Shown piece after piece: positions 233-30,566 of a stretch of DNA of 64,000 bases. Each line of letters starts with the position of its first letter. Within the stretch, counting starts at the first letter, position 1. Made by a program: the position numbers and the translations under genes. Location of the stretch: contig JAXLZT010000001.1 in NCBI GenBank assembly GCA_046350795.1, forward strand, positions 80,468 through 144,467, given 5' to 3'. This stretch comes from Minisyncoccota bacterium (GTDB taxonomy: Bacteria; Patescibacteriota; Minisyncoccia; Phycocordibacterales; CALRHW01). The notes under the pieces were generated by a model. That model was not told the origin of the DNA. It saw only the letters and a list, made by a program, of their open reading frames with translations, and did not search any database.

Positions 233-2173
233 CTAGCCAGCATGTTCTATATCCATTTTATTTTTAAGCTGGATACCGTTTGCGACGATTATCTTTTCAT
301 ACTCTTCCCTTTCTATAGTTTCCACCTCTACTAGACGCAGAGCTATGATATCCAAAAGTTTTCTGTGTTTTGTAATAATATCCTCAGTTTTTTCGTAAGC
401 TTCTTTCATTATTTTAGACACTTCAGCATCTATCATCGCGCTTACCTCTTGGGAATATTCTTTTTCTTCTACACCTCTTCCAAACATAGCTCTACCACCA
501 GAACCCTCCAAAGCTATAGGTCCTATCTTTTCAGACATTCCGTATTTTGTAACCATATCGCGCGCGAGAGCTGTAGACACTTGCAAATCATTTGATGAAC
601 CGGTAGTAAGGTCGCCAAAAATATTTTTTTCTACTACATATCCACCAAGCGAAACCGCAATGTCATCTAGAAATTCATTTTTTGATTGCATCTTTTTGTC
701 ATCGAGAGGAAGCTTTAAAGTGTAGCCAGCCGCACGTCCACGAGAGATAATAGATATTTTGTGCACTGGATCAGCATACGGAAGCACTGAAGCGACGAGA
801 GCATGTCCGGCTTCGTGATACGCAGTGATTTCTTTTTCTTTTTTTGAAAGAATGTGACTTCTTCTCTCAGGACCAAGCATCACTTTTTCAATAGAACGAA
901 TCAGATCGTACTGAGAAACTTGTGTGCGGTTCTCTCGTGCAGCTAGTATTGCACCCTCATTCATTAGAGAGTACAAATCCGCACCAGAAAATCCTGGGGT
1001 ACGCTCTGCTATCACTCCCAAATTTACATCTTCTGCAAATGGTTTTGATTTTGAATGAATAGCCAAAATTTCTTCTCTGTCTTTTCTATCTGGAAAATCT
1101 AGAGTGACGCGTCGATCGAAACGTCCTGGTCGTAGCAGAGCCGGGTCAAGCACATCAGGTCTATTTGTCGCAGCCATTACTATCACCTTTTCATTTGGCT
1201 CAAAGCCGTCCATTTCTACAAGTATTTGATTTAGTGTCTGCTCTCTTTCATCATTTCCCCCACCAGCACCCACTCCTCTGACACGACCCACAGCGTCTAT
1301 TTCATCTACGAAAATTATCGCCGGCGCATTTTGTTTTGCCACCTTAAATAGATCACGCACACGTGAAGCTCCAACACCCACAAACATTTCAACAAACTCT
1401 GAACCAGAAATAGAAAAGAAAGAAACACCCGCTTCACCCGCGACCGCTCGCGCAAGCAAAGTCTTTCCTGTGCCGGGCGCGCCCATTAGCAAAATACCTT
1501 TTGGAATTCTTGCGCCAATATCTAGAAACTTTTTTGGATTCCTCAAAAAGTCGACAATTTCTTTCAATTCTTCTTTTGCTTCTTTTACACCAGCAACATC
1601 TTTAAAAGTCACTCTTTGTTTTTTGTCATCAGGAGAAATCATTCGCGCTTTTGATTGACCAAAAGTGAAAGCTTGTACTCCCGCACCACGCACCTGCCGA
1701 GTCATAAACCACAAAAAGAAAACTACGAAAATAATAGGAACGATTATCGGTGCTAAATTTATAACCCAATACCAAAAACCACTATCCCCCCTTATTTCTA
1801 TTTTCACTTCACTGAGTTTTTCTGGAGTGACCCCATAGTTTGTGAGAGTTTCAGAAAGTGCTGTCGTATCCTCTTTTTTTGCATCCTTTTTTTCTTGACT
1901 CTTGTAAACAATGTCTAAAAATTCCCCTTTTACATAAATATCTGACACAAGACCGGCATTTACATCACGTGCAAGCTCGCTGATAGATATTGTTGTGGAT
2001 TGTTTTTCTGCACCAGACAAAAAAGAATAAATAGTAAGAATGATAAAAAATATTAAAAATGTGCTACCAATATTTAGCCACATTTTATTTTTTTCTGGCA
2101 TACCTTTTTGTGGTACAGTTTTCTTTAAAACAACTTTAAGGTTTTTCTTATTTTTTTGATTAAATAGTTTCAT
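233..2173 (-). CDS. ftsH: ATP-dependent zinc metalloprotease FtsH
   Basis: N-terminal TM segments, AAA Walker [21 protein letters not shown], zinc site HEAGHALV; ORF-track start at 2290 adds 39 non-conserved codons, ATG at 2171-2173 (MKLFNQ) preferred. Confidence 0.93.
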
Positions 2174-2501
2174 ATGGACGATTATACAATAAAAGTTGAA
2201 GGGTCGCCTATGACAGCGACCCCTCCTGGGGACCAACGAGAGTTCGTGTGGCTCATGTATCGGGATTGAGCAACCTGCTAGAAAGCCCACGATTCCTCAT
2301 GCCTGTTGCGTGAGGATTGATCCTCCGTCTCGGAGGAAGTTTCTCCCACAGCCAGCTTCCCGCGTCACATGCCCAGGCAAGGGCAATGCAAAAGACAAGA
2401 ACAAACGTGGGAGGGAAATTGTCATCGAAACTCCCCTCAGCGTAACGTTCGCGACGCATAGCGTGTTCTCCTAAAGATGTGCGTACAGACCCTGCAAGAT
2501 T

Positions 2502-2984
2502 ATGCCAAAAATCCCCCATTTTTGCTATAGTAGGCTTGTGGCAACATTTATCCAAAATAAAAAAGCGCATTTCAACTATGAAATTACAGAAAAGCTCACT
2601 GCCGGTGTAGAGCTTCTTGGCTTTGAAGTAAAATCTGTGCGCGCGGGACAAGGATCTCTCGAAGGCTCATATGTCACCGTCCGTGGTGCAGAGGCATTCA
2701 TCATCGGCATGCATGTGGCACCATTTCAAGCTTTCAATACTCCACGCGATTACGATCCACTACGCAACCGCAAACTGCTTTTAACAAAAAAAGAAATCGC
2801 TACGCTCGGAGAAATAGAAAAAAAGAAGGGTTTGACAATAGTGCCTATTTCGGTGTATAGTATGGGCCGTAAGATCAAAGTGGAGCTAGGTATAGCGCGC
2901 GGAAAGAAAAGTTTTGATAAGCGCGAGACGATAAAAAAGCGAGACTCTGATCGAGACATACGACGCGCGATAAAAGATAGATAG
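2502..2984 (+). CDS. smpB: SsrA-binding protein SmpB
   Basis: KKAHFNYEI...GFEVKSVRAG...RNRKLLL..KKE...KG.TIVP..VY...KIKVELGIARGKK motifs typical of SmpB; true start may be GTG near 2538; located just upstream of tmRNA. Confidence 0.85.
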   Translation: MPKIPHFCYSRLVATFIQNKKAHFNYEITEKLTAGVELLGFEVKSVRAGQGSLEGSYVTVRGAEAFIIGMHVAPFQAFNTPRDYDPLRNRKLLLTKKEIATLGEIEKKKGLTIVPISVYSMGRKIKVELGIARGKKSFDKRETIKKRDSDRDIRRAIKDR

Positions 2985-3022
2985 TGATGCGCAGAAAATA
3001 CGCGTCGAGCGAACATTGAAAT

Positions 3023-3429
3023 GGGGATGATCGGCCTAGACAGGAGATCAAATCATATATGTGCAAAGTGGAGCTCTGGTGACTCCTAAATCCGCCAGAA
3101 ATTCTAAGTGCAAACGCCTTAGTTACAAAAGCAAAGATCGTCTCTCCATTTTTTGGACAGAAAGATTTTGCTTTCGCTTACGCTTTAGCCTAAGCGACGT
3201 CGCACGAGCCGGCTCCCGTAAAGCTCATTGCGGTGTTATATATTCGGGATAAAGTGTCAGGGCGTTTCGACTGACATTGAAAATAATTGAAACTAGGTAC
3301 TACAAGGTTTTGTTTGTTCCCTACTTGTAGTACTCAAATCGTTCGCAAGAACGAAGAAACATCCTAAACTTTGTAGACTCATATCTGATCATTTCTTGCA
3401 CCCGAGTTCGATTCTCGGCATCTCCACAA
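3023..3429 (+). ncRNA. ssrA: transfer-messenger RNA (tmRNA, one-piece)
   Basis: 5' GGGGAUGA pairs with 3' CAUCUCC to give a 7-bp acceptor stem plus discriminator A (3426); T-arm CCGAG-UUCGAUU-CUCGG at 3401-3419; internal tag ORF 3110-3193 reading ANALVTKAKIVSPFFGQKDFAFAYALA-stop (AYALA ending typical of tmRNA tags); adjacent to smpB. Confidence 0.8.
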
Positions 3430-3552
3430 ATTAGTTAAGAAAATCACGTGATGGAAAATAAGAAAAGAGAGTGGTCTATCGTTGAGACCCAAGATTTTTA
3501 TAAAAATCTGCTAAAAAAAGCGCTAGCGACTATTCCTGAAAAAGGAGCGGCT

Positions 3553-3855
3553 ATGGTACTTGGACCTATGTTTATTATTAGAGCGCCAGAAGAAAACTTC
3601 GCCTTATTTGAAAAAGCACAAAATGAGTTACAAGAAAAAGGTGTTGAGATTTTTAATCAATTACCTTTTGTTGACTATATTATCGGAGACGCACCATTTG
3701 ATTACAAAACTAAATTCGAATTATTTTATAAAGCACTCATAAACTCTGGGAAAATTACGTCCTGCTATTTACTTCCTGATTGGGAAAAGTCAGAAGGCAC
3801 AAGAAGCGAAATCCAGTATTGCAAAGATGCGAAAATACCGGTTTTTGAGATGTAA
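3553..3855 (+). CDS. DUF4406-like (nucleoside 2-deoxyribosyltransferase-like fold) protein
   Basis: MVLGPMFIIRAPEEN...CYLLPDWEKSEGTRSEIQYCKDAKIPVF resembles the DUF4406 pattern (AGPM...LPGWE.SRGA..E); RBS AAAGGAG 5 nt upstream of ATG 3553; ORF-track start 3448 probably too early. Confidence 0.5.
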   Translation: MVLGPMFIIRAPEENFALFEKAQNELQEKGVEIFNQLPFVDYIIGDAPFDYKTKFELFYKALINSGKITSCYLLPDWEKSEGTRSEIQYCKDAKIPVFEM

Positions 3856-3909
3856 GTATTTGTTGACATAATACACAAAAAGTACTATTTTCACTATGAA
3901 ATGCACAAA

Positions 3910-3927
3910 ACCGATAACGTTATCGGT
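3910..3927. promoter_or_regulatory. 18-bp perfect palindrome ACCGATAACGTTATCGGT upstream of high-GC gene (candidate operator)
   Basis: seen directly in sequence; lies between a TTGACA-like hexamer (3872) and the start codon at 3957. Confidence 0.3.
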
Positions 3928-3956
3928 CTGAACGAAGACCTGAAAGGATGGTCCAA

Positions 3957-4421
3957 ATGAAGGAGAACGACCTAAAAATCGGGAGAAAGGTGGAAGTGAC
4001 TTCCCTTTCCAACACACAGGATTGGGGAATTGATGACCAGTACCTCGCGGGGCGCAAGCTGGGGGCCGTAGGCACAGCGCACAAGGCTGCATTCGGCAGG
4101 TGCGCTGGTCTCTGGTACATCAGGGACAACGATGGGCGACTCTCCGTCTACCACGCAGACGAGCTGAGCATCCCTCGCGCGGAGCTCGAGCTAGAGCTTG
4201 CCGAAGCCAAGAACGCCATCGAGGAGTTGATCGCAAACGTGGATAGAGCGACCAATGAGGTGCTGTACCTGACCACTGCCCTGCACCATCTCTCCAATCT
4301 TCGGAAGGGCTGGTGGCCATTTGTCGCCAAGCACAGGATCGATGACATCTTCAAGGTACTCAAGGAGGCCCGCAGACTCTTTGAAGAAAGACTTGAAAAA
4401 AGCCGTGAGAAGCCGCAGTAA
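3957..4421 (+). CDS. hypothetical protein, high-GC, coiled-coil C-terminus
   Basis: long ORF with markedly higher GC and different codon usage than neighbours; second ATG preceded by GAAAGGA. Confidence 0.55.
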   Translation: MKENDLKIGRKVEVTSLSNTQDWGIDDQYLAGRKLGAVGTAHKAAFGRCAGLWYIRDNDGRLSVYHADELSIPRAELELELAEAKNAIEELIANVDRATNEVLYLTTALHHLSNLRKGWWPFVAKHRIDDIFKVLKEARRLFEERLEKSREKPQ

Positions 4422-4542
4422 GCGAGACTCACGGCTTTCTCATTTGTCTAAAGTTTTTTAATGGTAGATAATGTATGAGGCGTTCCCGTATCGCGCATTT
4501 ATGCGCAACAGAAGTTTGGGCAACTTACTGGGAGATCACATG

Positions 4543-4818
4543 GCTACGGTGGGAGACATCGTGGAGGTCGTGGACAAAATCAAGGAGGAAAACAAGAAAC
4601 TCAAGGGGTTGGACTTCACACGAGAGCAGTGTGAACTCATCAGCAAACTTGGAGACATCGTCTTTGAGCACATCGGACTGAGAGATGTTCGACGTCCATT
4701 CGCGCTCACCATTCAGGTCAACGCAGAAGCGGAGAGTGTCTTGCACACTCTCCGGGGGTTCTTGATCCAAACACACACAGAGACAAAGAGAAAGGAGCCT
4801 GAAGGCACACTCGTGTAG
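4543..4818 (+). CDS. hypothetical protein (high-GC)
   Basis: ORF 4471-4818; start ambiguous (MATVGDIV at 4543 plausible); followed by terminator. Confidence 0.4.
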   Translation, partial: ATVGDIVEVVDKIKEENKKLKGLDFTREQCELISKLGDIVFEHIGLRDVRRPFALTIQVNAEAESVLHTLRGFLIQTHTETKRKEPEGTLV

Positions 4819-4838: not shown

Positions 4839-4880
4839 CCGACCCGTAGGAAAGAAATTTCCCGGGTCGGTTTAATATTT
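4839..4880. terminator. bidirectional terminator hairpin CCGACCCG...CGGGTCGG plus T-run
   Basis: 8-bp GC stem 4839-4846 / 4863-4870 followed by TTTAATATTTT; sits between convergent genes. Confidence 0.55.
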
Positions 4881-5438
4881 TCTAACCACACCTTTTACCA
4901 CAGCAGCGATACGAAAACTTTCTGTGGGATAAATGGGTTTGTAGTTTTTGTTGGCTGGCTCGAGCCAAACTTTACCATTTTTTGATCTGTAAAATTTCAT
5001 AGTCCACCCACCATCTACTTCCGCAATAACTATTTCACCATCGCGTGCATACTCGCGTCTCTCCGCAACCACCATGTCTCCTTCTTGTATACCTTCTTCT
5101 ATCATTGAATCACCCTTTACCTCCAACATGTAGGTTTTGCTCTGATCTTCGATAAGAAGCTCGTCTATACTCATAGTGTCTAGCTGATCCTCTTCTGCAA
5201 CAGAAGGAAAACCAGCTTCCACCAAACCAAGGACAGGGACTTGTCCAAACATATTTTTAGGAATGAGCCGGCCTTGAGAATCTTTTTCTACTATCCCCGC
5301 CTCTACCATTTTATTGATGAGTTTGTAGACAGCATTTTTAGATTTGAAACCAACGAGTGCCATGATTTCTTTGTATCCAGGCATTCGTCGATGCTTTTTA
5401 TAAAATCCTAAAATTTTTTGTTTGTATTGTTCGTTCAT
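4872..5438 (-). CDS. lexA: LexA-family transcriptional repressor (S24 peptidase)
   Basis: N-terminal winged-helix (PGYKEIMALVGFKSKNAVYKLINKM), Ala-Gly cleavage site VEAGFP, catalytic Ser in VKGDSM and Lys in TMKFYRS. Confidence 0.85.
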   Translation of the reverse strand: MNEQYKQKILGFYKKHRRMPGYKEIMALVGFKSKNAVYKLINKMVEAGIVEKDSQGRLIPKNMFGQVPVLGLVEAGFPSVAEEDQLDTMSIDELLIEDQSKTYMLEVKGDSMIEEGIQEGDMVVAERREYARDGEIVIAEVDGGWTMKFYRSKNGKVWLEPANKNYKPIYPTESFRIAAVVKGVVRKY

Positions 5439-5459
5439 TTAAATCTATTGCACTCCTGA

Positions 5460-5654
5460 TTAAAGAAACGACGCAAAGCCAAATGATCTTGTGAGCCAAG
5501 CACTGCGACGCATCTGACTGAGCTGACTGCGAAGACGCTTGTGTGCTTTTGCTTCTTTGGAATATGATTGGCCTTTTATAATTTTTAAATCTATCTGATC
5601 ATTTAGCCTTTTGAGCTCATCGTGTATTGAATATAACATTCTGTTTTTACTCAT
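5460..5654 (-). CDS. small hypothetical protein co-transcribed upstream of lexA
   Basis: 64-aa basic ORF between LexA box and lexA, same strand. Confidence 0.35.
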   Translation of the reverse strand: MSKNRMLYSIHDELKRLNDQIDLKIIKGQSYSKEAKAHKRLRSQLSQMRRSAWLTRSFGFASFL

Positions 5655-5697
5655 GTTTTTTATGTTATTAAATAATTAATCTTTATATAGAGTATAG

Positions 5698-5713
5698 GTG
5701 AACTAGGGTTCAC
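5698..5713. promoter_or_regulatory. LexA (SOS) box GTGAAC-TAGG-GTTCAC
   Basis: perfect GAAC-N4-GTTC palindrome (Cheo-box type) about 45-60 bp upstream of the lexA operon start and in the divergent promoter of the 5867 gene. Confidence 0.55.
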
Positions 5714-5866
5714 CAGTCAATGTGGACAAGATTCTAGAAAATAAAAAATGGGTGCGGTCAACTCTACCCTATTTAAATTACGAGTGTATACTTTTATACG
5801 GCGTTCACAAACATTGTGCTGAGAAACAGACCCGGTCTTGCCACTTACAAAAGGAATGGTGACACA

Positions 5867-6205
5867 ATGTCCACCGAAGAAACACCGGAATACGATTTCG
5901 AGGGCGTAGCCCACAGGGTGTACCCAGGAACAAGGACTCGCAACCCCAACATTGCACCGATCCACGTCAGGGCATTCGGTACGTGCGGAGGAATCCAGCA
6001 TCCCATTCACGCTCAGCTGTTGGGTCTCGAAAGACCACAGTCGGCCACTGACCAACGCTCTCAGCCCTCTCTCTTTGGGGATGATGAAGAAAAGAGGTGC
6101 TGTGGCAATCCATCTTGTGCAGGATCTTGTCCGCACAAGAGAGAGGGTGCCGAGATCTCCGCTGACACCGACAGCGTCAACGTCACCTCTTCGGTGAAGC
6201 ACTAG
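5867..6205 (+). CDS. hypothetical Cys-rich protein (high-GC)
   Basis: ORF 5816-6205; MSTEETPEY start likely; CCGNPSCAGSCPH motif; followed by strong terminator. Confidence 0.45.
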   Translation: MSTEETPEYDFEGVAHRVYPGTRTRNPNIAPIHVRAFGTCGGIQHPIHAQLLGLERPQSATDQRSQPSLFGDDEEKRCCGNPSCAGSCPHKREGAEISADTDSVNVTSSVKH

Positions 6206-24337: not shown

Positions 24338-25537
24338 CTATGCAATGATCTTTGTAACAACTCCCGCACCCACTGTCTTGCCTCCTTCTCGAATAGCAAA
24401 GTTTTGTTTTTCCTCAAGAGCAACTGGCGCTACAAGCTTTACCTTGAAAGTCACTGTATCTCCAGGCATAACCATTTCTACTCCCTCTTTTAGAGTCACA
24501 TCTCCTGTAACGTCTGTTGTACGGATGTAAAATTGTGGCTTGTATCCTGAGAAGAATGGAGTATGTCGTCCACCTTCTTCTTTCTTTAGAATGTAAACTT
24601 CTGCTTCGAAATCAGTGTGAGGAGTCACAGATCCTGGCTTTGCTAGCACCTGTCCTCGAGAGATATCTTCTTTCTTTAGACCTCGCACTAGAATACCGGC
24701 GTTGTCTCCAGCCATACCTTCTGATAGAGATTTGTTGAACATTTCAATACCAGTCACCACTGTCTTTGCAGCAGCCTTTAGACCAATAACCTCAACTTCT
24801 TCACCTACCTTGATGCGTCCTCGCTCAATACGACCTGTAACCACTGTTCCACGGCCTTCGATAGAGAAGATGTCTTCTACTGGCATAAGGAAAGGTTTTT
24901 CTAGATCACGCTCTGGGATTGGTACATATGTATCAAGAGCGTTTGCGAGCTCAAGAATCTTTTGTGCCCATTCATCTGAGTTGTCCTTTGACTCAAGAGC
25001 CTTTAGACCAGAACCTCGAATAATAGGAGTATTTGCTCCATCGTAACCATTCTTTGTAAGGAGCTCTCGCACCTCTTCTTCCACAAGGTCAATAAGCTCT
25101 TTATCAGGCACCATATCACACTTGTTTAGGAACACGAGGATTTTTGGCACACCGATTTGATGAGCTAGGAGTACGTGCTCACGAGTTTGTGGCATCACAC
25201 CGTCAGTAGCAGCTACCACGATAATAGCGCCGTCCATTTGAGCAGCACCAGTAATCATGTTTTTGATGTAGTCGGCATGTCCAGGAGCATCAATATGAGC
25301 ATAATGACGAGTAGGAGTCTCGTATTCATTGTGAGAAAGGGCAATAGTAATTCCACGAGCCTTTTCTTCAGGCGCCTTATCAATACCGTCGATACCGACG
25401 ATCTTTGCACTATAGCCATTACCCTGTCGTCCAAGGACTGAAAGGATAGCCGCTGTCAAAGTTGTTTTACCATGATCCACGTGTCCGATTGTTCCTACGT
25501 TCACGTGTGGTTTTGATCGATCAAATTCTCCTGCCAT
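24338..25537 (-). CDS. tuf: elongation factor Tu
   Basis: [29 protein letters not shown], full-length EF-Tu. Confidence 0.97.
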
Positions 25538-25680
25538 ATTTTTATAAAATTAATTTTTAATAAATAATTATTTTATGCCCTATTTTGCTAGTGTTTTTGT
25601 CGGATTTTTAAAAACCCAAAAACAAAAACGGCGCAAAAAGCGATAACGCTCATATTAACAAACGCCTTGCAATAGTCAAG

Positions 25681-26805
25681 TTATTTTTTACTACCGTCTG
25701 GATAGAAAAACTCTGGTATGGTTTTATGGAAATCTCGCTTTGATTCGTAAGTGAGGCATGCCCACAAAACAGGTCCTTTTTTATTTATACATGACTCAAT
25801 CATCTCCTTTACCTCCGGAAAATCATTACCATAATAATCAGTGTAAGGACTAATAGCTACGCGTTGTCCTTCAAAATCTAAAAAGTTGCCATGCTCATCT
25901 AAACCGCGCAAATACTGTGTGTATGGGTACGCTTTATATAATTTATCGCGTAGTGGCAAATGTGGTGGCACTTGGTCAAATGGCCCATCAAAATAATTGT
26001 TTGCCATGATACTGTAAGCATCAACCCCTATCAATATCTTCCTTCGTGTATCTTCATCGTTCCAATAAATAAATTTTGTCCTATCACCCAGCAAAAGATG
26101 CTCACCTAAATCAGTAAGTGTCTCTGTAATAGGATAATCTTCATTTACAACATAATAAAAACTCTTTGTCGTATTATTAAAAATTAAAAAAAATCTAATA
26201 GCGGACTCGTCTTGTATATTTGCCACAAACTCCTCATCTGGTAAGAGAGAAAAACTATTAGGTAAATTTGTGTCCTGTGATGGTAGATGGAAAAAGACCG
26301 TTTTGCCAGCATAAGATAACTTTACAAGTTTTTCAGAGATCATTTTTACATCTAAACCATCTTTTTGCGATAAAACAGTATACTGAAACTGTAGTGTATC
26401 CTCTGTATTAAAATATGCGAAAGACAATAAACCAGTCTCGATATCCGCAAACCTCAGATTACCAGCAAGTGATATTGATGGGATAGAAAAATAATAATAC
26501 CTTTCGGTTGGATATACGATAGCGTAATAAGGTAGTTTTTTCCAAACATAATCAAAAACATTCTTAGGATTAGACAAATCAAGCTCTTCAGAAAAGCTAC
26601 CGTTAAAAAAATTATTTAACCTAGCTGAATAATTTGATAGACCAAACAATAAGAAATCACTCTTTGAATAAGATTTAAAACTTCTAAATAGTTCTTCCTG
26701 AAATCGTTGATTGAACGAGATATTATTACTCTTAAATGGGACGTTGAAAGATAAAACAATAGTTAAAAAAATAACAACACCAAGCAATACTAGAGATTTT
26801 TTCAT
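25681..26805 (-). CDS. hypothetical signal-anchored extracytoplasmic protein (inserted between tuf and fusA)
   Basis: N-terminal hydrophobic anchor LVLLGVVIFLTIVL, Tyr/Phe-rich 374-aa body, no recognised motif. Confidence 0.6.
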   Translation of the reverse strand: MKKSLVLLGVVIFLTIVLSFNVPFKSNNISFNQRFQEELFRSFKSYSKSDFLLFGLSNYSARLNNFFNGSFSEELDLSNPKNVFDYVWKKLPYYAIVYPTERYYYFSIPSISLAGNLRFADIETGLLSFAYFNTEDTLQFQYTVLSQKDGLDVKMISEKLVKLSYAGKTVFFHLPSQDTNLPNSFSLLPDEEFVANIQDESAIRFFLIFNNTTKSFYYVVNEDYPITETLTDLGEHLLLGDRTKFIYWNDEDTRRKILIGVDAYSIMANNYFDGPFDQVPPHLPLRDKLYKAYPYTQYLRGLDEHGNFLDFEGQRVAISPYTDYYGNDFPEVKEMIESCINKKGPVLWACLTYESKRDFHKTIPEFFYPDGSKK

Positions 26806-26822: not shown

Positions 26823-27854
26823 CTATCTGCTTGTACTAGGAGTAACTATCCCTGAAGCCGGCTTGCCTCCCAAAGAAACATTGTATAAATGATCAATCGA
26901 CATAGACGAACTTATAGTAGCACTGTGGTTTGGTGGCCATGTTTGACTATGCTGAAAGCTATGTGTCGGTGGCCAAGACTGACTAGTATTAACGGCGTGC
27001 TGAGAATAATCAGAACTAGTAGTCTTATCATGATTTGGTGGCCAAGAAGGACTAGTCATTGGCATGTGGCTTGGTGGCCAAGTGAGACTTGTATCTGTTT
27101 TATGATTTGGTGGCCACGGTAGTGGTAAAGGAGGATATTGATACTGACTACTCCATGCAGTCTTATGATTTGGTGGCCAATCCTTACTGTAATAAAGATT
27201 ATGTCCAGCCGGCCAAGTAGCACTTAATGCTGTATTATGAGAAACCCACGTATTACTAGGATACGCCTGATGACCAGTAGGCCACAAACTACTCATAGCG
27301 AAAGAGTGATTTTTTGGCCAATTTTTACTTAGATCTACACTGTGATTATTCTCGGTCCATGTTTTACTAAAAGAATACTCATGATTTGGCAACCAAGTTT
27401 TACTTAGAGTATAAGAATGGTTGAAAGGCATTGGCCAACCTTTACTTATAGAAAAACCGTGATTAGCTGGCCAAGATGAGCTGTCGGCAAGAGAGTGGTT
27501 GTTTTGATTCCAAACCTTACTTACACTTAAATTGTGATTTGGTGGCCATGTCCAGCTTGTATTTACAGAATGATTGGTCCAAGTAGTACTCACCTGAGAA
27601 CCATGACCTGGTGGCCATGTTCTGCTTATTGATTGAGAATGTTCTGGTTGGATTGTGCCTTCTGCAGACAGAGTGGTTTGTGAAGAAGGGCCACTTTTTA
27701 CAATAGTCGTTCCAGCTGAGACAGAAGCTAAGCTTTCGTAATTATCAGAAGAAAAAAAGCCCTCACCATCATCTCTAAATAGAAAGAATATGTTCCAAAT
27801 TATAAATAATAATAAAACAACATCAATAACGTTTCTTGTTTTTTTACTAACCAT
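26823..27854 (-). CDS. membrane-anchored protein composed of ~18 tandem ~12-aa W-P-P-N-H repeats
   Basis: N-terminal TM VIDVVLLLFIIWNIFFLF then repeats such as TWPPGHGSQVST / WPPNHNLSVSK / SWPANHGFSISK / TWLPNHEYSFSK / WPPNHKTDTSL / WPPTHSFQHSQT / WPPNHSATISS seen in translation. Confidence 0.7.
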   Translation of the reverse strand: MVSKKTRNVIDVVLLLFIIWNIFFLFRDDGEGFFSSDNYESLASVSAGTTIVKSGPSSQTTLSAEGTIQPEHSQSISRTWPPGHGSQVSTTWTNHSVNTSWTWPPNHNLSVSKVWNQNNHSLADSSSWPANHGFSISKGWPMPFNHSYTLSKTWLPNHEYSFSKTWTENNHSVDLSKNWPKNHSFAMSSLWPTGHQAYPSNTWVSHNTALSATWPAGHNLYYSKDWPPNHKTAWSSQYQYPPLPLPWPPNHKTDTSLTWPPSHMPMTSPSWPPNHDKTTSSDYSQHAVNTSQSWPPTHSFQHSQTWPPNHSATISSSMSIDHLYNVSLGGKPASGIVTPSTSR

Positions 27855-27871: not shown

Positions 27872-30016
27872 CTATTTTCGAGACTCAACAATAGTCTTCT
27901 CCACGTTTGGAGGTACGATTTCGTAGTGATCGAATTCCATTCCAGCGTTTCCACGACCTTCTGTCATAGAGCGAAGCTGTGTAGTGTATCCAAACATTTC
28001 AGAAAGAGGCACCATCGCACGAATTACTTTTATATTCGCAGGACGATCTTCAAAGCCTTCGATAGTTGCACGCTTTGATGAAAGGCTACCCGTAATATCT
28101 CCAAAGAATTTTTCAGGCACAGTCACTTCTACTTTCATTATAGGCTCCAAGATAACAGGTCGTGCTTTCTTTGCGGCTTCTTGGAAAGCTTGTGAAGCGG
28201 CGATTTTGTAAGCGATTTCAGATGAGTCCACATCATGGTAAGAACCAAAAGTAAGCTCACAGGATACGTTTACCATTTTGTAGCCAGCCACGATACCTCT
28301 ATCCATAGCTTCTTTTACTCCCTTTTCTACAGCAGGAATAAACTCCTGAGGAATAACTCCTCCTTTGATAGAATCAATAAACTCAAATTCATCGTATCGT
28401 TTTACGTTTTTTGGTACCTTTGCTCCCTCTTCAAGCTTTTCCATAGGCTTGATAGTGATACGCACGTGACCGTACTGACCTTTTCCTCCAGATTGCTTGA
28501 TATATTTGTGTTCTGCCTCAGCAGTACCTGTAATAGTTTCCTTGTATGACACTTGTGGCTGACCGACGTTTGCTTCTACAGCAAATTCTCGTTTCATACG
28601 ATCCACCATGATTTCTAGATGCAACTCTCCCATTCCTGAGATAATAGTCTCACCTGTGTCAGAGTTTGAACTGATTTTAAATGTAGGATCTTCGTCTGAA
28701 AGTTTTTTTAGAGCAATACCCATCTTTTCCTGATCAGCTTTTGTCTTTGGCTCTATACGTAGAGATACCACAGGCTCTACGAATTTAATAGGATCAAGAA
28801 CTATCGGATTATTTTCATCAGAGAAAGTGTGAGATGTACGTGCAGATTTTAGTCCCACAGCAGCAGCGATCTCTCCAGCAAAAACTTTTTTCACTTCTTC
28901 TCGCTTGTCTGCTTGTAGTCGCACGATACGACCAAGTCGTTCTTTTTCACCAGTTGTTGAGTTGTAAATATATGTTCCCGCTTCGATAGTACCAGAATAC
29001 ACGCGGAAGAATGTGAGCTGTCCTACGAATGGGTCGTTTTGTAGTTTGAAAGCAAGTGCAGCAAATGGCTCTGTATCAGATGCTTTACGCTCTATAGTCT
29101 CTCCTGTCTTTGGATCCAGACCCGTTACAGGTGGAATATCAAGTGGAGACGGAAGGTACTCCACCACACCGTCGAGCACTAGCTGTACTCCTTTATTTTT
29201 TAGAGCAGAACCAGCGTATACAGGAATGAGTTTTACAGCTAGAGTCGCTTTTCGAAGGGTTGCCTTTAGCTCTGCAAGAGACGGCTCTTTTCCCTCTAGG
29301 TACATACTCATCTGTGCATCATCTTGCTCTACGATTTTTTCTATAAGCTCTGCGCGAAACTTTTTTGCTTCTTCTAAATATTCAGCAGGGATTTCAGCCT
29401 CACGAATAGTGTTACCCATGTTTCCTTCAAAATAGTAGGCCTTCATTTTCAAAAGATCTATCACACCTTCGAAATTTTCTTCTAGACCAATAGGAATCTG
29501 CACTCGCACAGCATTTTTATTTAGTCTGTCTACGATAGACTTGTATGAACGCTCAAAGCTTGCACCCATTCGATCGAGTTTGTTTATAAAACACACTCGT
29601 GGCACCTTTCCATCATCAGCATATCGCCAGTTGGTCTCAGATTGAGGCTCCACTCCAGCCACTCCGTCGAAAACTACCACAGCTCCGTCGAGTACTCGCA
29701 AAGAACGCTTTACCTCAGCAGTAAAGTCGATGTGTCCCGGTGTGTCGATAATATTGAATCGAAACATTTTCGCAGGATCTTTTACCTCGTATGTAGGATT
29801 CCAGAAACATGTGATAGCAGCGGCAGTAATAGTGATACCTCGCTCTCTCTCCTGCTCCATCCAGTCAGTAGTAGTGTTTCCTTCGTGCACTTCACCTATT
29901 TTGTGGCTTTCTCCTGTGTAATAAAGTACGCGCTCTGATGTAGTCGTCTTTCCAGCGTCGATATGCGCAATGATTCCAAAATTTCTAACTTTCTCTAATG
30001 GGTAGTCTCTGTTCAT
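27872..30016 (-). CDS. fusA: elongation factor G
   Basis: [19 protein letters not shown], five-domain EF-G length. Confidence 0.96.
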
Positions 30017-30041: not shown

Positions 30042-30566
30042 TTAGAAAAAGAGTCGGCTAAATACAAAGAAGAAGTAAGCCAAGACGATAACAAGAACGA
30101 TACCGCCAATAGAGAAATTCCTACCCTGCTTCTTGAACACTGTATTCCCTTCTCCCTGAAGACAAGTCATTACAATGATAAATGAGCCAAAAGCGAGTAC
30201 TGCTACTGAGCCAAGAGATTTGTAAAGCACATCCTTATCAGCAATAACATCCCAAATAGCAAGTACACCAAGAAGTGCCAAAATAGCAGCTGAAATTATT
30301 AGTATTACTACAGTTACGCTTCTTATTACTTGAAAAGCTGGATTTGCTACTACTGGCATAGTGATTTCTACAGCATTTTTACTTTGCATAAACTTTCCAG
30401 CGACCATTATTACTACAGCAACCGCCGCAAGAAGACCTAGAGTCTCAAAAGATTTTACGATTACATCGCTAGCAAAGAAATCCCAAATACCCAACACTGA
30501 GATGATAGAAAGCAAAGCTACCGCACAAATAAAAATAAGCCCAGCAACGTCTTGAAGTTTTTTCAT
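30042..30566 (-). CDS. hypothetical 4-TM membrane protein with internal two-fold duplication (inserted between rpsG and fusA)
   Basis: halves LLSIISVLGIWDFFASDVIVKSFETLGLLAAVAVVIMVAG and ILALLGVLAIWDVIADKDVLYKSLGSVAVLAFGSFIIVMT align. Confidence 0.55.
   Translation of the reverse strand: MKKLQDVAGLIFICAVALLSIISVLGIWDFFASDVIVKSFETLGLLAAVAVVIMVAGKFMQSKNAVEITMPVVANPAFQVIRSVTVVILIISAAILALLGVLAIWDVIADKDVLYKSLGSVAVLAFGSFIIVMTCLQGEGNTVFKKQGRNFSIGGIVLVIVLAYFFFVFSRLFF

Follow-up and report, generated by a model that had tools for sequence, protein, structure and literature searches.

A pair of genes in the str operon

The subject of this study is a pair of adjacent genes in a stretch of 64,000 nucleotides from a contig of a Minisyncoccota bacterium (JAXLZT010000001.1), referred to here as the window. 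One gene encodes a 343-residue protein built almost wholly of short tandem repeats (hereafter the repeat protein), in which a histidine is followed by a serine five residues on (H-x4-S); the next encodes a 374-residue protein with a predicted membrane anchor (MFO0718531.1, locus tag U0522_00670), which we call the partner. The association between the motif and the partner domain is tight and exclusive, extends across phyla and includes fusions of the two within one chain. Both genes lie on the minus strand within the str operon, with fusA on one side of the pair and tuf on the other (Table 1). The original prediction for this stretch had missed both the strand of the repeat gene and the partner gene downstream of it.

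The repeat gene is real and not a pseudogene. Its frame is intact and free of frameshifts, and occupies exactly the space from fusA to the partner gene: it starts 17 nt past the fusA stop codon, and the partner gene starts 17 nt past its own stop. A Shine-Dalgarno-like AGGG is located 5–8 nt ahead of its ATG, and such sites are present in the run of fusA, repeat gene and partner gene. The identical repeat protein recurs on 12 contigs, which come from several sequencing runs, and the gene in one variant contig shows 4 nucleotide differences, all synonymous, which disposes of the degraded pseudogene once named as an alternative. The broader idea of an artefact, whether a low-complexity open reading frame (ORF), an antisense shadow or a decaying pseudogene, could appeal to the biased composition of the protein and to a 77-residue antisense ORF within the gene, but with these observations, with 233 relatives that show position-specific conservation and with orthologues that share the same transmembrane (TM) anchor, it has practically no chance of being right. 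The antisense ORF is rich in 'WWP'; it is a reverse-complement shadow of the repeat codons and not a gene.

The repeat protein begins with MVSKKTRNVIDVVLLLFIIWNIFFLFRDD, in which positive charge is followed by a hydrophobic helix. This helix, the predicted signal-anchor, is modelled by AlphaFold2 (AF2) with a predicted local distance difference test score (pLDDT) of about 85, and the sequence K-x-R-N-[VI]-I-D together with the TM segment is kept in P0004, P0148 and L005_414, three orthologues from the candidate phyla radiation (CPR). Beyond the linker, 18 units of the form W-x(1-5)-[NGTS]-H were located by regular expression between residues 80 and 310. The description of an N-terminal TM helix followed by about 18 tandem W-P-P-N-H repeats of about 12 residues, which make up nearly the whole protein, is thus borne out by the regular expression, the His spacing and the AF2 helix together. 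The 343 residues include 60 Ser, 34 Pro, 33 Thr, 26 Asn, 22 His and 21 Trp.

A serine is found at +5 from 21 of the 22 histidines, against a mean of 4.0 and a maximum of 13 in 10,000 shuffles of the same array region, and 17 successive His–His spacings measure 11–13 residues (mean 2.0 and maximum 9 in the shuffles). When 439 in-register units from the repeat protein and its homologues are compared, Trp is present in 74% and Pro in 71%, followed by a position of Ala or Pro, Asn in 41% (Asp in 15%), His in 100%, four variable residues, Ser in 98% (Thr in 2%) and two further variable residues. By this comparison the invariant core of the repeat is H-x4-S. The W-P-x-N-H part of the consensus proposed originally holds, whereas its '(F/Y)' and terminal 'K' positions are local to some of the units in the window. 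Tandem Repeats Finder reported 0 rows for the DNA of the gene, and therefore the units must be old and diverged, with few residues per unit held constant; example units are SKVWPPNHNLSVSKVW. An N-glycosylation sequon (N-H-S/T) matches about 6 of the window's 18 units; it is not conserved in the homologues and was rejected as an explanation of the motif.

No curated family, solved structure or located paper covers the repeat, in agreement with the first impression that the family was unfamiliar. In Pfam, the best match to the repeat protein was DUF3470 with E=0.43 and 11 bits against a cut-off of 23.2; NCBIfam, PADLOC and the PDB sequences gave no match, and nothing relevant was found in the full text of the literature for WPPNH, WPANH, WPxNH and WPPGH, or for keywords on repeats and for ribosomally synthesised and post-translationally modified peptides (RiPPs). 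The AF2 model has a mean pLDDT of 45.1, a predicted template modelling score of 0.28 and zero β-strands, with the TM helix as its sole confident part and a helical turn of 4 residues once per unit, roughly from His+2 to His+5. The alignment behind this model comprises 26 sequences and is shallow and repeat-misaligned. As modelled, the array is probably largely disordered.

Table 1. Features of the repeat/partner locus and other features of the window (positions in the window).
Feature	Position	Strand	Remarks
tmRNA gene	3023..3429	plus	Rfam RF00023, 117.8 bits, full length
tuf	24338..25537		Other flank of the repeat/partner pair
Promoter-like site	25679..25652	minus	TTGACT-16-TAATAT, with TG; in the 143-bp gap between partner gene and tuf
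Partner gene	25681..26805	minus	374 aa, predicted membrane anchor
Repeat-protein gene	26823..27854	minus	343 aa; intact ORF, ATG 27854..27852, stop TAG 26825..26823
C-terminal tail of repeat protein			Short; after residue 327
Repeat array	26874..27641	minus	Residues 72-327; 21 H-x4-S units (18 with W-P-x-N-H), period about 12
Antisense ORF	26889..27122	plus	77 aa; shadow of the repeat codons
Linker	27642..27770	minus	Residues 29-71; Ser/Thr/Gly-rich sequence; pLDDT 27-36
TM signal-anchor	27771..27830	minus	Residues 9-28, N-terminal, after KKTR; predicted N-in, C-out
fusA (EF-G)	27872..30016	minus	Directly upstream of repeat gene; Pfam domains of called genes on identical contigs
Membrane protein gene	30042..30566	minus	174 aa, multi-pass; between rpsG and fusA

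Relatives of the array and the His/Ser spacing

A word-indexed search with the repeat protein returned 25 homologues. Relatives with the WPxNH repeat, which the original prediction had suggested looking for, therefore exist, and among them are the CPR orthologues P0004 and P0002, which share the N-terminal anchor. Relatives from Phycisphaerales carry a signal peptide and Ca-binding dockerin/EF-hand modules ahead of the array, and P0001 consists of a globular domain followed by about 14 repeats. A profile of three units, searched against 1.84 billion representative proteins, matched 233 proteins at E<=1e-3, so the repeat family is small; most of the matched proteins start with a signal- or anchor-like hydrophobic segment.

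In 120 repeat proteins, the Pfam domains found were Dockerin_1 (38), EF-hand families (up to 19) and FG-GAP (2), with no others, and the partner domain is contained in 7 of 137 profile matches. The WPxNH repeat occurs alone, with dockerin/EF-hand, with FG-GAP or with the orphan partner domain only. The dockerin/EF-hand modules (PF00404, PF00036) stand N-terminal to the array in 38 of the 120 homologues, mostly from Phycisphaerales, whereas the repeat protein in the window has a TM anchor instead. The C-termini of several Phycisphaerales repeat proteins (P0006, P0010, P0017, P0024 and others) share a motif of about W-P-x-F-P-P-G-H-x-W-x-T-T-x-x-x-I-x-D-x-x-P-x-L-P, which is absent from the repeat protein of the window and may be a sorting or anchoring signal.

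Distant loci that contain the partner and are devoid of WPxNH carry other His/Ser arrays beside it. The unit in Legionella is a hexapeptide, as in GSHDKDESHYKTGSH; in Rhizobium and a metagenome-assembled genome of Hyphomicrobiales the units are heptapeptides, SWHxxxxSWH and HRPPKSPHLPRGSFH; and the arrays of Nanoarchaeota, Saccharibacteria, Bdellovibrionota, Opitutaceae and Acidobacteriaceae follow H-x4-[ST]-x2-W-x(2-4)-H. In Legionella gresilensis (locus L071, 5910..6560, plus strand), the array makes up a secreted protein of 216 residues with about 25 hexapeptides S-H-x-K-x-x and 35 His, whose gene starts right after the stop codon of the partner homologue (4872..5909). Three proteins of 1000–1150 residues encoded beside partner homologues (L081 of Rhizobium sp. 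LjRoot254, 1522..4791, plus strand; L082, 1267..4332; L086, 1235..4672) end in long tails of H-x4-S heptapeptides or hexapeptides (SWHxxxxSWH, HRPPKSPH..., SHDKRGSH...). The L082 protein also has Laminin_G_3, and the L086 protein has PG_binding_1 and DUF11.

Ser or Thr is present at +5 for 71–95% of the His in all 11 arrays examined (90% in the Rhizobium tail), with the other offsets near background, and an aromatic residue at His+8 is frequent across the arrays. Over periods of 6, 7, 12 and 14 residues and in eight or more phyla, the sole constant is a His followed by Ser/Thr at +5. The array types form a continuum, since P0193 mixes the WPPEH and GH-x4-S-x2-W forms in one protein. His and the following Ser stand at a constant distance, and the spacing from Ser to the next His ranges from 0 to about 8 residues; we therefore infer that the functional unit is the His/Ser pair.

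The partner protein and its association with the array

The partner family comprises 619 homologue matches, with 492 loci among species-representative genomes. It is found in Saccharibacteria and further CPR, in DPANN archaea (Woese-, Pace-, Nano- and Parvarchaeota), in Phycisphaerales and further Planctomycetota, and in Bdellovibrionota; more distant carriers include Acidobacteriota, Opitutaceae, Hyphomicrobiales and, from the Proteobacteria, Legionella gresilensis and Rhizobium sp. LjRoot254, among others. Verrucomicrobiota are likewise named as a carrier phylum. The family is marked by the motifs VYPTExYYY, SGNLRF, DESG, NNYFDGPFDQVPP and RVAISPY. Invariant in 94 partner sequences are N118, R120, D201, D275, D279, Q280, D305, R317 and five Tyr (numbering of P0054), and the same alignment contains no invariant or nearly invariant His or Cys. 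Such a pattern looks more typical of an active site, or of a metal- or ligand-binding site, than of a simple scaffold.

The AF2 model of a family member with 40% identity to the partner has a pLDDT of 93, and no structural neighbour of it was found in the PDB. Pfam, NCBIfam and PADLOC gave no match to the partner, and searches of the PDB sequences with the single protein and with a profile gave one match at E=0.02, with no stretch passing alone. Judged by this model, the fold of the partner is novel. Like the repeat protein, the partner is predicted to be anchored in the membrane and to face outward.

P0001 unites array and partner in one chain, its globular part being a homologue of the partner in the window. 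Among the 80 best partner loci, that is, the genome loci with the strongest partner matches of the 492, an ORF with the WPxNH repeat lies directly upstream on the same strand in about 55, sometimes as two ORFs, and another H-x4-S/T array adjoins the partner in ten further loci. Altogether, an H-x4-S array is adjacent to or fused with the partner in about 65 of the 80. The order of repeat gene and then partner gene also holds in L005/L006 (with two repeat paralogues), L009, L092 and L093, and in the Phycisphaerales loci L010/L011, where IT437_14170 is followed by IT437_14175 after a gap of 14 nt; a partner apparently adjoins P0147 as well. Two tandem repeat paralogues precede a single partner gene in L005 (150..1394 and 1422..2456, plus strand) and in L093 (4001..5443 and 5447..5968, plus strand), and two upstream repeat genes are seen at several Phycisphaerales loci too.

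Outside CPR and DPANN, most partners end in 2–3 WPxNH-x4-S units with an exact spacing of 12 residues, some in 6; in P0092, 11 units precede the partner domain and 3 follow it. The partners of CPR and DPANN have no repeat tail. In the AF2 model of the fused protein P0054, the C-terminal repeats have a pLDDT of 63–80, as compared with about 45–58 for the same motif when the domain is lacking, which gives a weak hint that the tail might dock on the domain.

No third gene is conserved across 81 loci; such further clusters as came up reflect local synteny or consist of antisense shadow ORFs. The wider context varies, being the str operon in the window, ClpB in Phycisphaerales and the dcw cluster in L092. 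In the window, no terminator-like site was found on the minus strand across fusA, the repeat gene and the partner gene, and a promoter-like site precedes tuf, which suggests that tuf has its own promoter and that the repeat/partner pair is read through from fusA.

Two further features of the window were noted. The gene for a 174-residue multi-pass membrane protein lies between rpsG and fusA in the str operon; its product has no significant Pfam match (PIRT, E=0.0026, below the cut-off). Contig L002, otherwise 99.6% identical, lacks a 583-bp segment that holds this gene, which is thus a strain-level presence/absence polymorphism inside a core operon. The tmRNA gene listed in Table 1 is the sole match at the Rfam gathering level in the 64-kb window.

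Possible roles of the array and its partner

We propose that the array is a dedicated client of the orphan-fold partner, and put the probability of this reading at about 0.6; of the two roles a client may have, we favour that of a substrate over that of a multivalent ligand. The N-terminal anchors in the window, the signal- or anchor-like segments of most homologues and their extracellular-type domains establish, at the level of sequence, that the system faces outward. A surface-exposed, membrane-anchored and largely disordered chain would then present about 21 copies of H-x4-S-x2-W(-P-x-N), and the globular domain of the partner would engage each unit through the invariant His and the hydroxyl group of the Ser/Thr five residues on, while the Trp at +8 would add an auxiliary contact. 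From the association described above, physical recognition of the motif by the partner domain is probable. Whether recognition goes beyond binding to catalysis is a more tentative matter, on which we lean towards catalysis over plain binding at somewhat less than even odds. The partner would in that case modify the units covalently, cross-link them or process them at the His/Ser pair, and the array would be a multi-site protein substrate or a multi-core precursor, either 'split' from its enzyme or 'fused' to it.

Three considerations favour catalysis. The universal determinants of the unit are two reactive residues, an imidazole and a hydroxyl (with Ser and Thr interchangeable), and not hydrophobic anchors; the partner possesses a dense set of invariant Asp, Arg, Tyr, Asn and Gln residues; and the split and fused forms with variable copy number mirror, by analogy, those of multi-core precursors. 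The most specific form of the proposal, an unrecognised extracytoplasmic system for protein modification or multi-core peptide maturation, in which a new enzyme fold would, outside the cell and without ATP, place a new His/Ser-centred modification or cross-link on each unit, is one that we hold with some doubt, at about one chance in three. The options that need no ATP would be hydrolysis or processing, cross-linking that depends on metal/O2, reactions of the transpeptidation type, and a transfer to the Ser hydroxyl from a lipid-linked or phospholipid donor.

Several observations weigh against the proposal. The partner displays no recognisable catalytic signature, no cofactor-binding His or Cys and no structural relative, and the chemistry open to it is restricted, since the extracytoplasmic space is devoid of ATP. 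Unlike classical RiPP clusters, the 81 loci have no conserved protease or exporter gene nearby. In the most distant of the 80 best partner loci, about 15 in number, no obvious His/Ser array adjoins the partner. Docking of the tail on the domain is only hinted at in the model, and with the shallow, hard-to-align input to AF2 the array may yet be folded.

The systems that the pair resembles most in arrangement are the enzyme-fused or 'split' multi-core precursors, which comprise the BURP-domain cyclases of plants, the borosin OphMA with the bacterial split borosins, and the fungal dikaritins (UstA, with DUF3328 oxidases). As in these precursors, the H-x4-S arrays keep invariant residues at a fixed spacing in otherwise variable short units, a dedicated protein is adjacent or fused across lineages in both split and fused forms, and the copy number varies; the window system is, moreover, predicted to be extracytoplasmic, like the fungal dikaritin case. 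The differences are equally clear. The partner is unrelated in sequence or fold to BURP, methyltransferase, DUF3328, radical SAM or P450 proteins or to any PDB entry; there is no conserved leader peptide, protease or exporter; and the array remains attached to a membrane anchor or forms part of large extracellular proteins. Tandem invariant units and an adjacent or fused dedicated protein are therefore found, as expected of a RiPP-like precursor, whereas a known enzyme class and a leader, protease and exporter are not.

A non-catalytic scaffold would make use of the same adjacency and fusions. In such a scaffold the partner would be a 'reader' that binds the H-x4-S-x2-W units, the array would align partner molecules, and tailed partners would link head-to-tail into a surface coat or mesh. 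A domain with a short tail is indeed the look expected of a self-polymerising unit, the Tyr-rich motifs of the partner (VYPTExYYYY, AYPY, SPY..Y) resemble aromatic cradles for Pro/Trp-rich peptides, and the number of units is highly variable. But the universal part of the motif is a His and a Ser/Thr alone, and two small polar residues would be an affinity motif of very low information; the hexapeptide variants are without any Pro or Trp, the partners of CPR and DPANN are tail-less, and the many invariant Asp and Arg look more like a catalytic or metal site. A scaffold is thus unlikely on balance, although it comes closest to the substrate reading among the alternatives. Less probable still, at perhaps one chance in eight, is an array of metal sites, in which each unit would bind Cu(II), Ni(II) or Zn(II) through its His, with Pro as break points and a Trp close by, and the chain would act as a surface buffer, store or sensor whose metal the partner loads, unloads or uses. 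One invariant His per unit (100% of the 439) and usually one Trp, a chain that is disordered in the ligand-free AF2 model, extracytoplasmic and membrane-anchored, the high His content of the variants (35 in the 216 residues of the Legionella protein) and the Ca-binding modules of homologues are consistent with it. The prion octarepeat (PHGGGWGQ)n, whose disordered units with one His and one Trp each bind metal, offers a precedent: the repeat protein likewise has one His and one Trp per predicted disordered unit, a Pro in the region of the His and an outward, membrane-tethered chain. It differs from the octarepeat in its period of 12 instead of 8, in not being Gly-rich after the His, in the invariant Ser at +5 and in its obligatory partner gene. 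Metal binding would leave unexplained why Ser, a poor metal ligand, occupies exactly +5 in 98% of the units with Thr as its sole substitute; no conserved metal-transport or metal-resistance genes lie near the 81 loci, and the partner lacks any invariant His or Cys.

Among the functional readings, the solenoid that binds carbohydrate or cell wall, as offered originally, has the least support. Taken further, the units would form a β-solenoid or superhelix that binds carbohydrate or a wall polymer and works as a generic anchor module, perhaps on the host wall in the case of episymbiotic CPR; this is very improbable. The regularly placed Trp, Asn, His and Ser are of the kinds that typically contact sugars, a catalytic domain followed by 2–3 C-terminal repeats is an architecture of autolysins too, some proteins with variant arrays also contain Laminin_G_3 or PG_binding_1, and the carriers include episymbionts and predators (Saccharibacteria, DPANN, Bdellovibrionota). 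However, structure prediction, which had been suggested as a check for a β-solenoid, gave no strand-built coil per repeat and no confident compact structure, but a chain with a pLDDT of 45 and no β structure, albeit from a shallow alignment. Related units of 6–7 residues, some of them highly charged, are too short to make up a coil or a module that binds sugar; none of the Pfam repeat families matches; the WPxNH repeat is tied to few domains and never found on diverse enzymes as true anchor modules are; and the tail-less partners of CPR and DPANN still keep an adjacent repeat gene. The comparison with CW_binding_1 leads in the same direction. Short aromatic repeats C-terminal to an extracytoplasmic domain, and stand-alone repeat-rich surface proteins in the same genomes, are common to both, whereas the repeat protein has no match to the hidden Markov model, a unit of 12 residues (6–14 in relatives) as opposed to about 20, no predicted hairpin or superhelix and a tie to one domain; it therefore lacks the aromatic hairpin of about 20 residues, spread over many catalytic domains, that defines membership. 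The Tenebrio antifreeze protein, a β-helix of 12-residue coils (TCTxSxxCxxAx), shares the 12-residue period and the Ser/Thr-rich units with the repeat protein. No β structure is predicted for the latter, its conserved residues are entirely different, and a disulfide ladder of the Tenebrio type is impossible because the repeat units have no Cys.

The repeat and the partner domain are both undescribed, belonging to no family, structure or located paper, and the pair has been kept, with repeated fusions, in DPANN archaea and in bacteria that are very distant from one another, including organisms with tiny genomes such as Paceibacterota. Episymbionts with small genomes keep few non-essential genes, and the surface module is therefore probably of importance for the biology of the envelope or for contact with a host. 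In the window the pair is placed in the str operon, an operon that is highly expressed. The His with Ser/Thr at exactly +5 provides a sharp handle for tests, and Legionella gresilensis and Rhizobium sp. LjRoot254 are culturable carriers; the L. gresilensis pair would be suitable as a model for experiments. Should the partner prove to be an enzyme, it would represent a new fold and a new extracytoplasmic chemistry; if it is a reader, the two proteins would represent a new motif–domain pair that builds assemblies on the cell surface.

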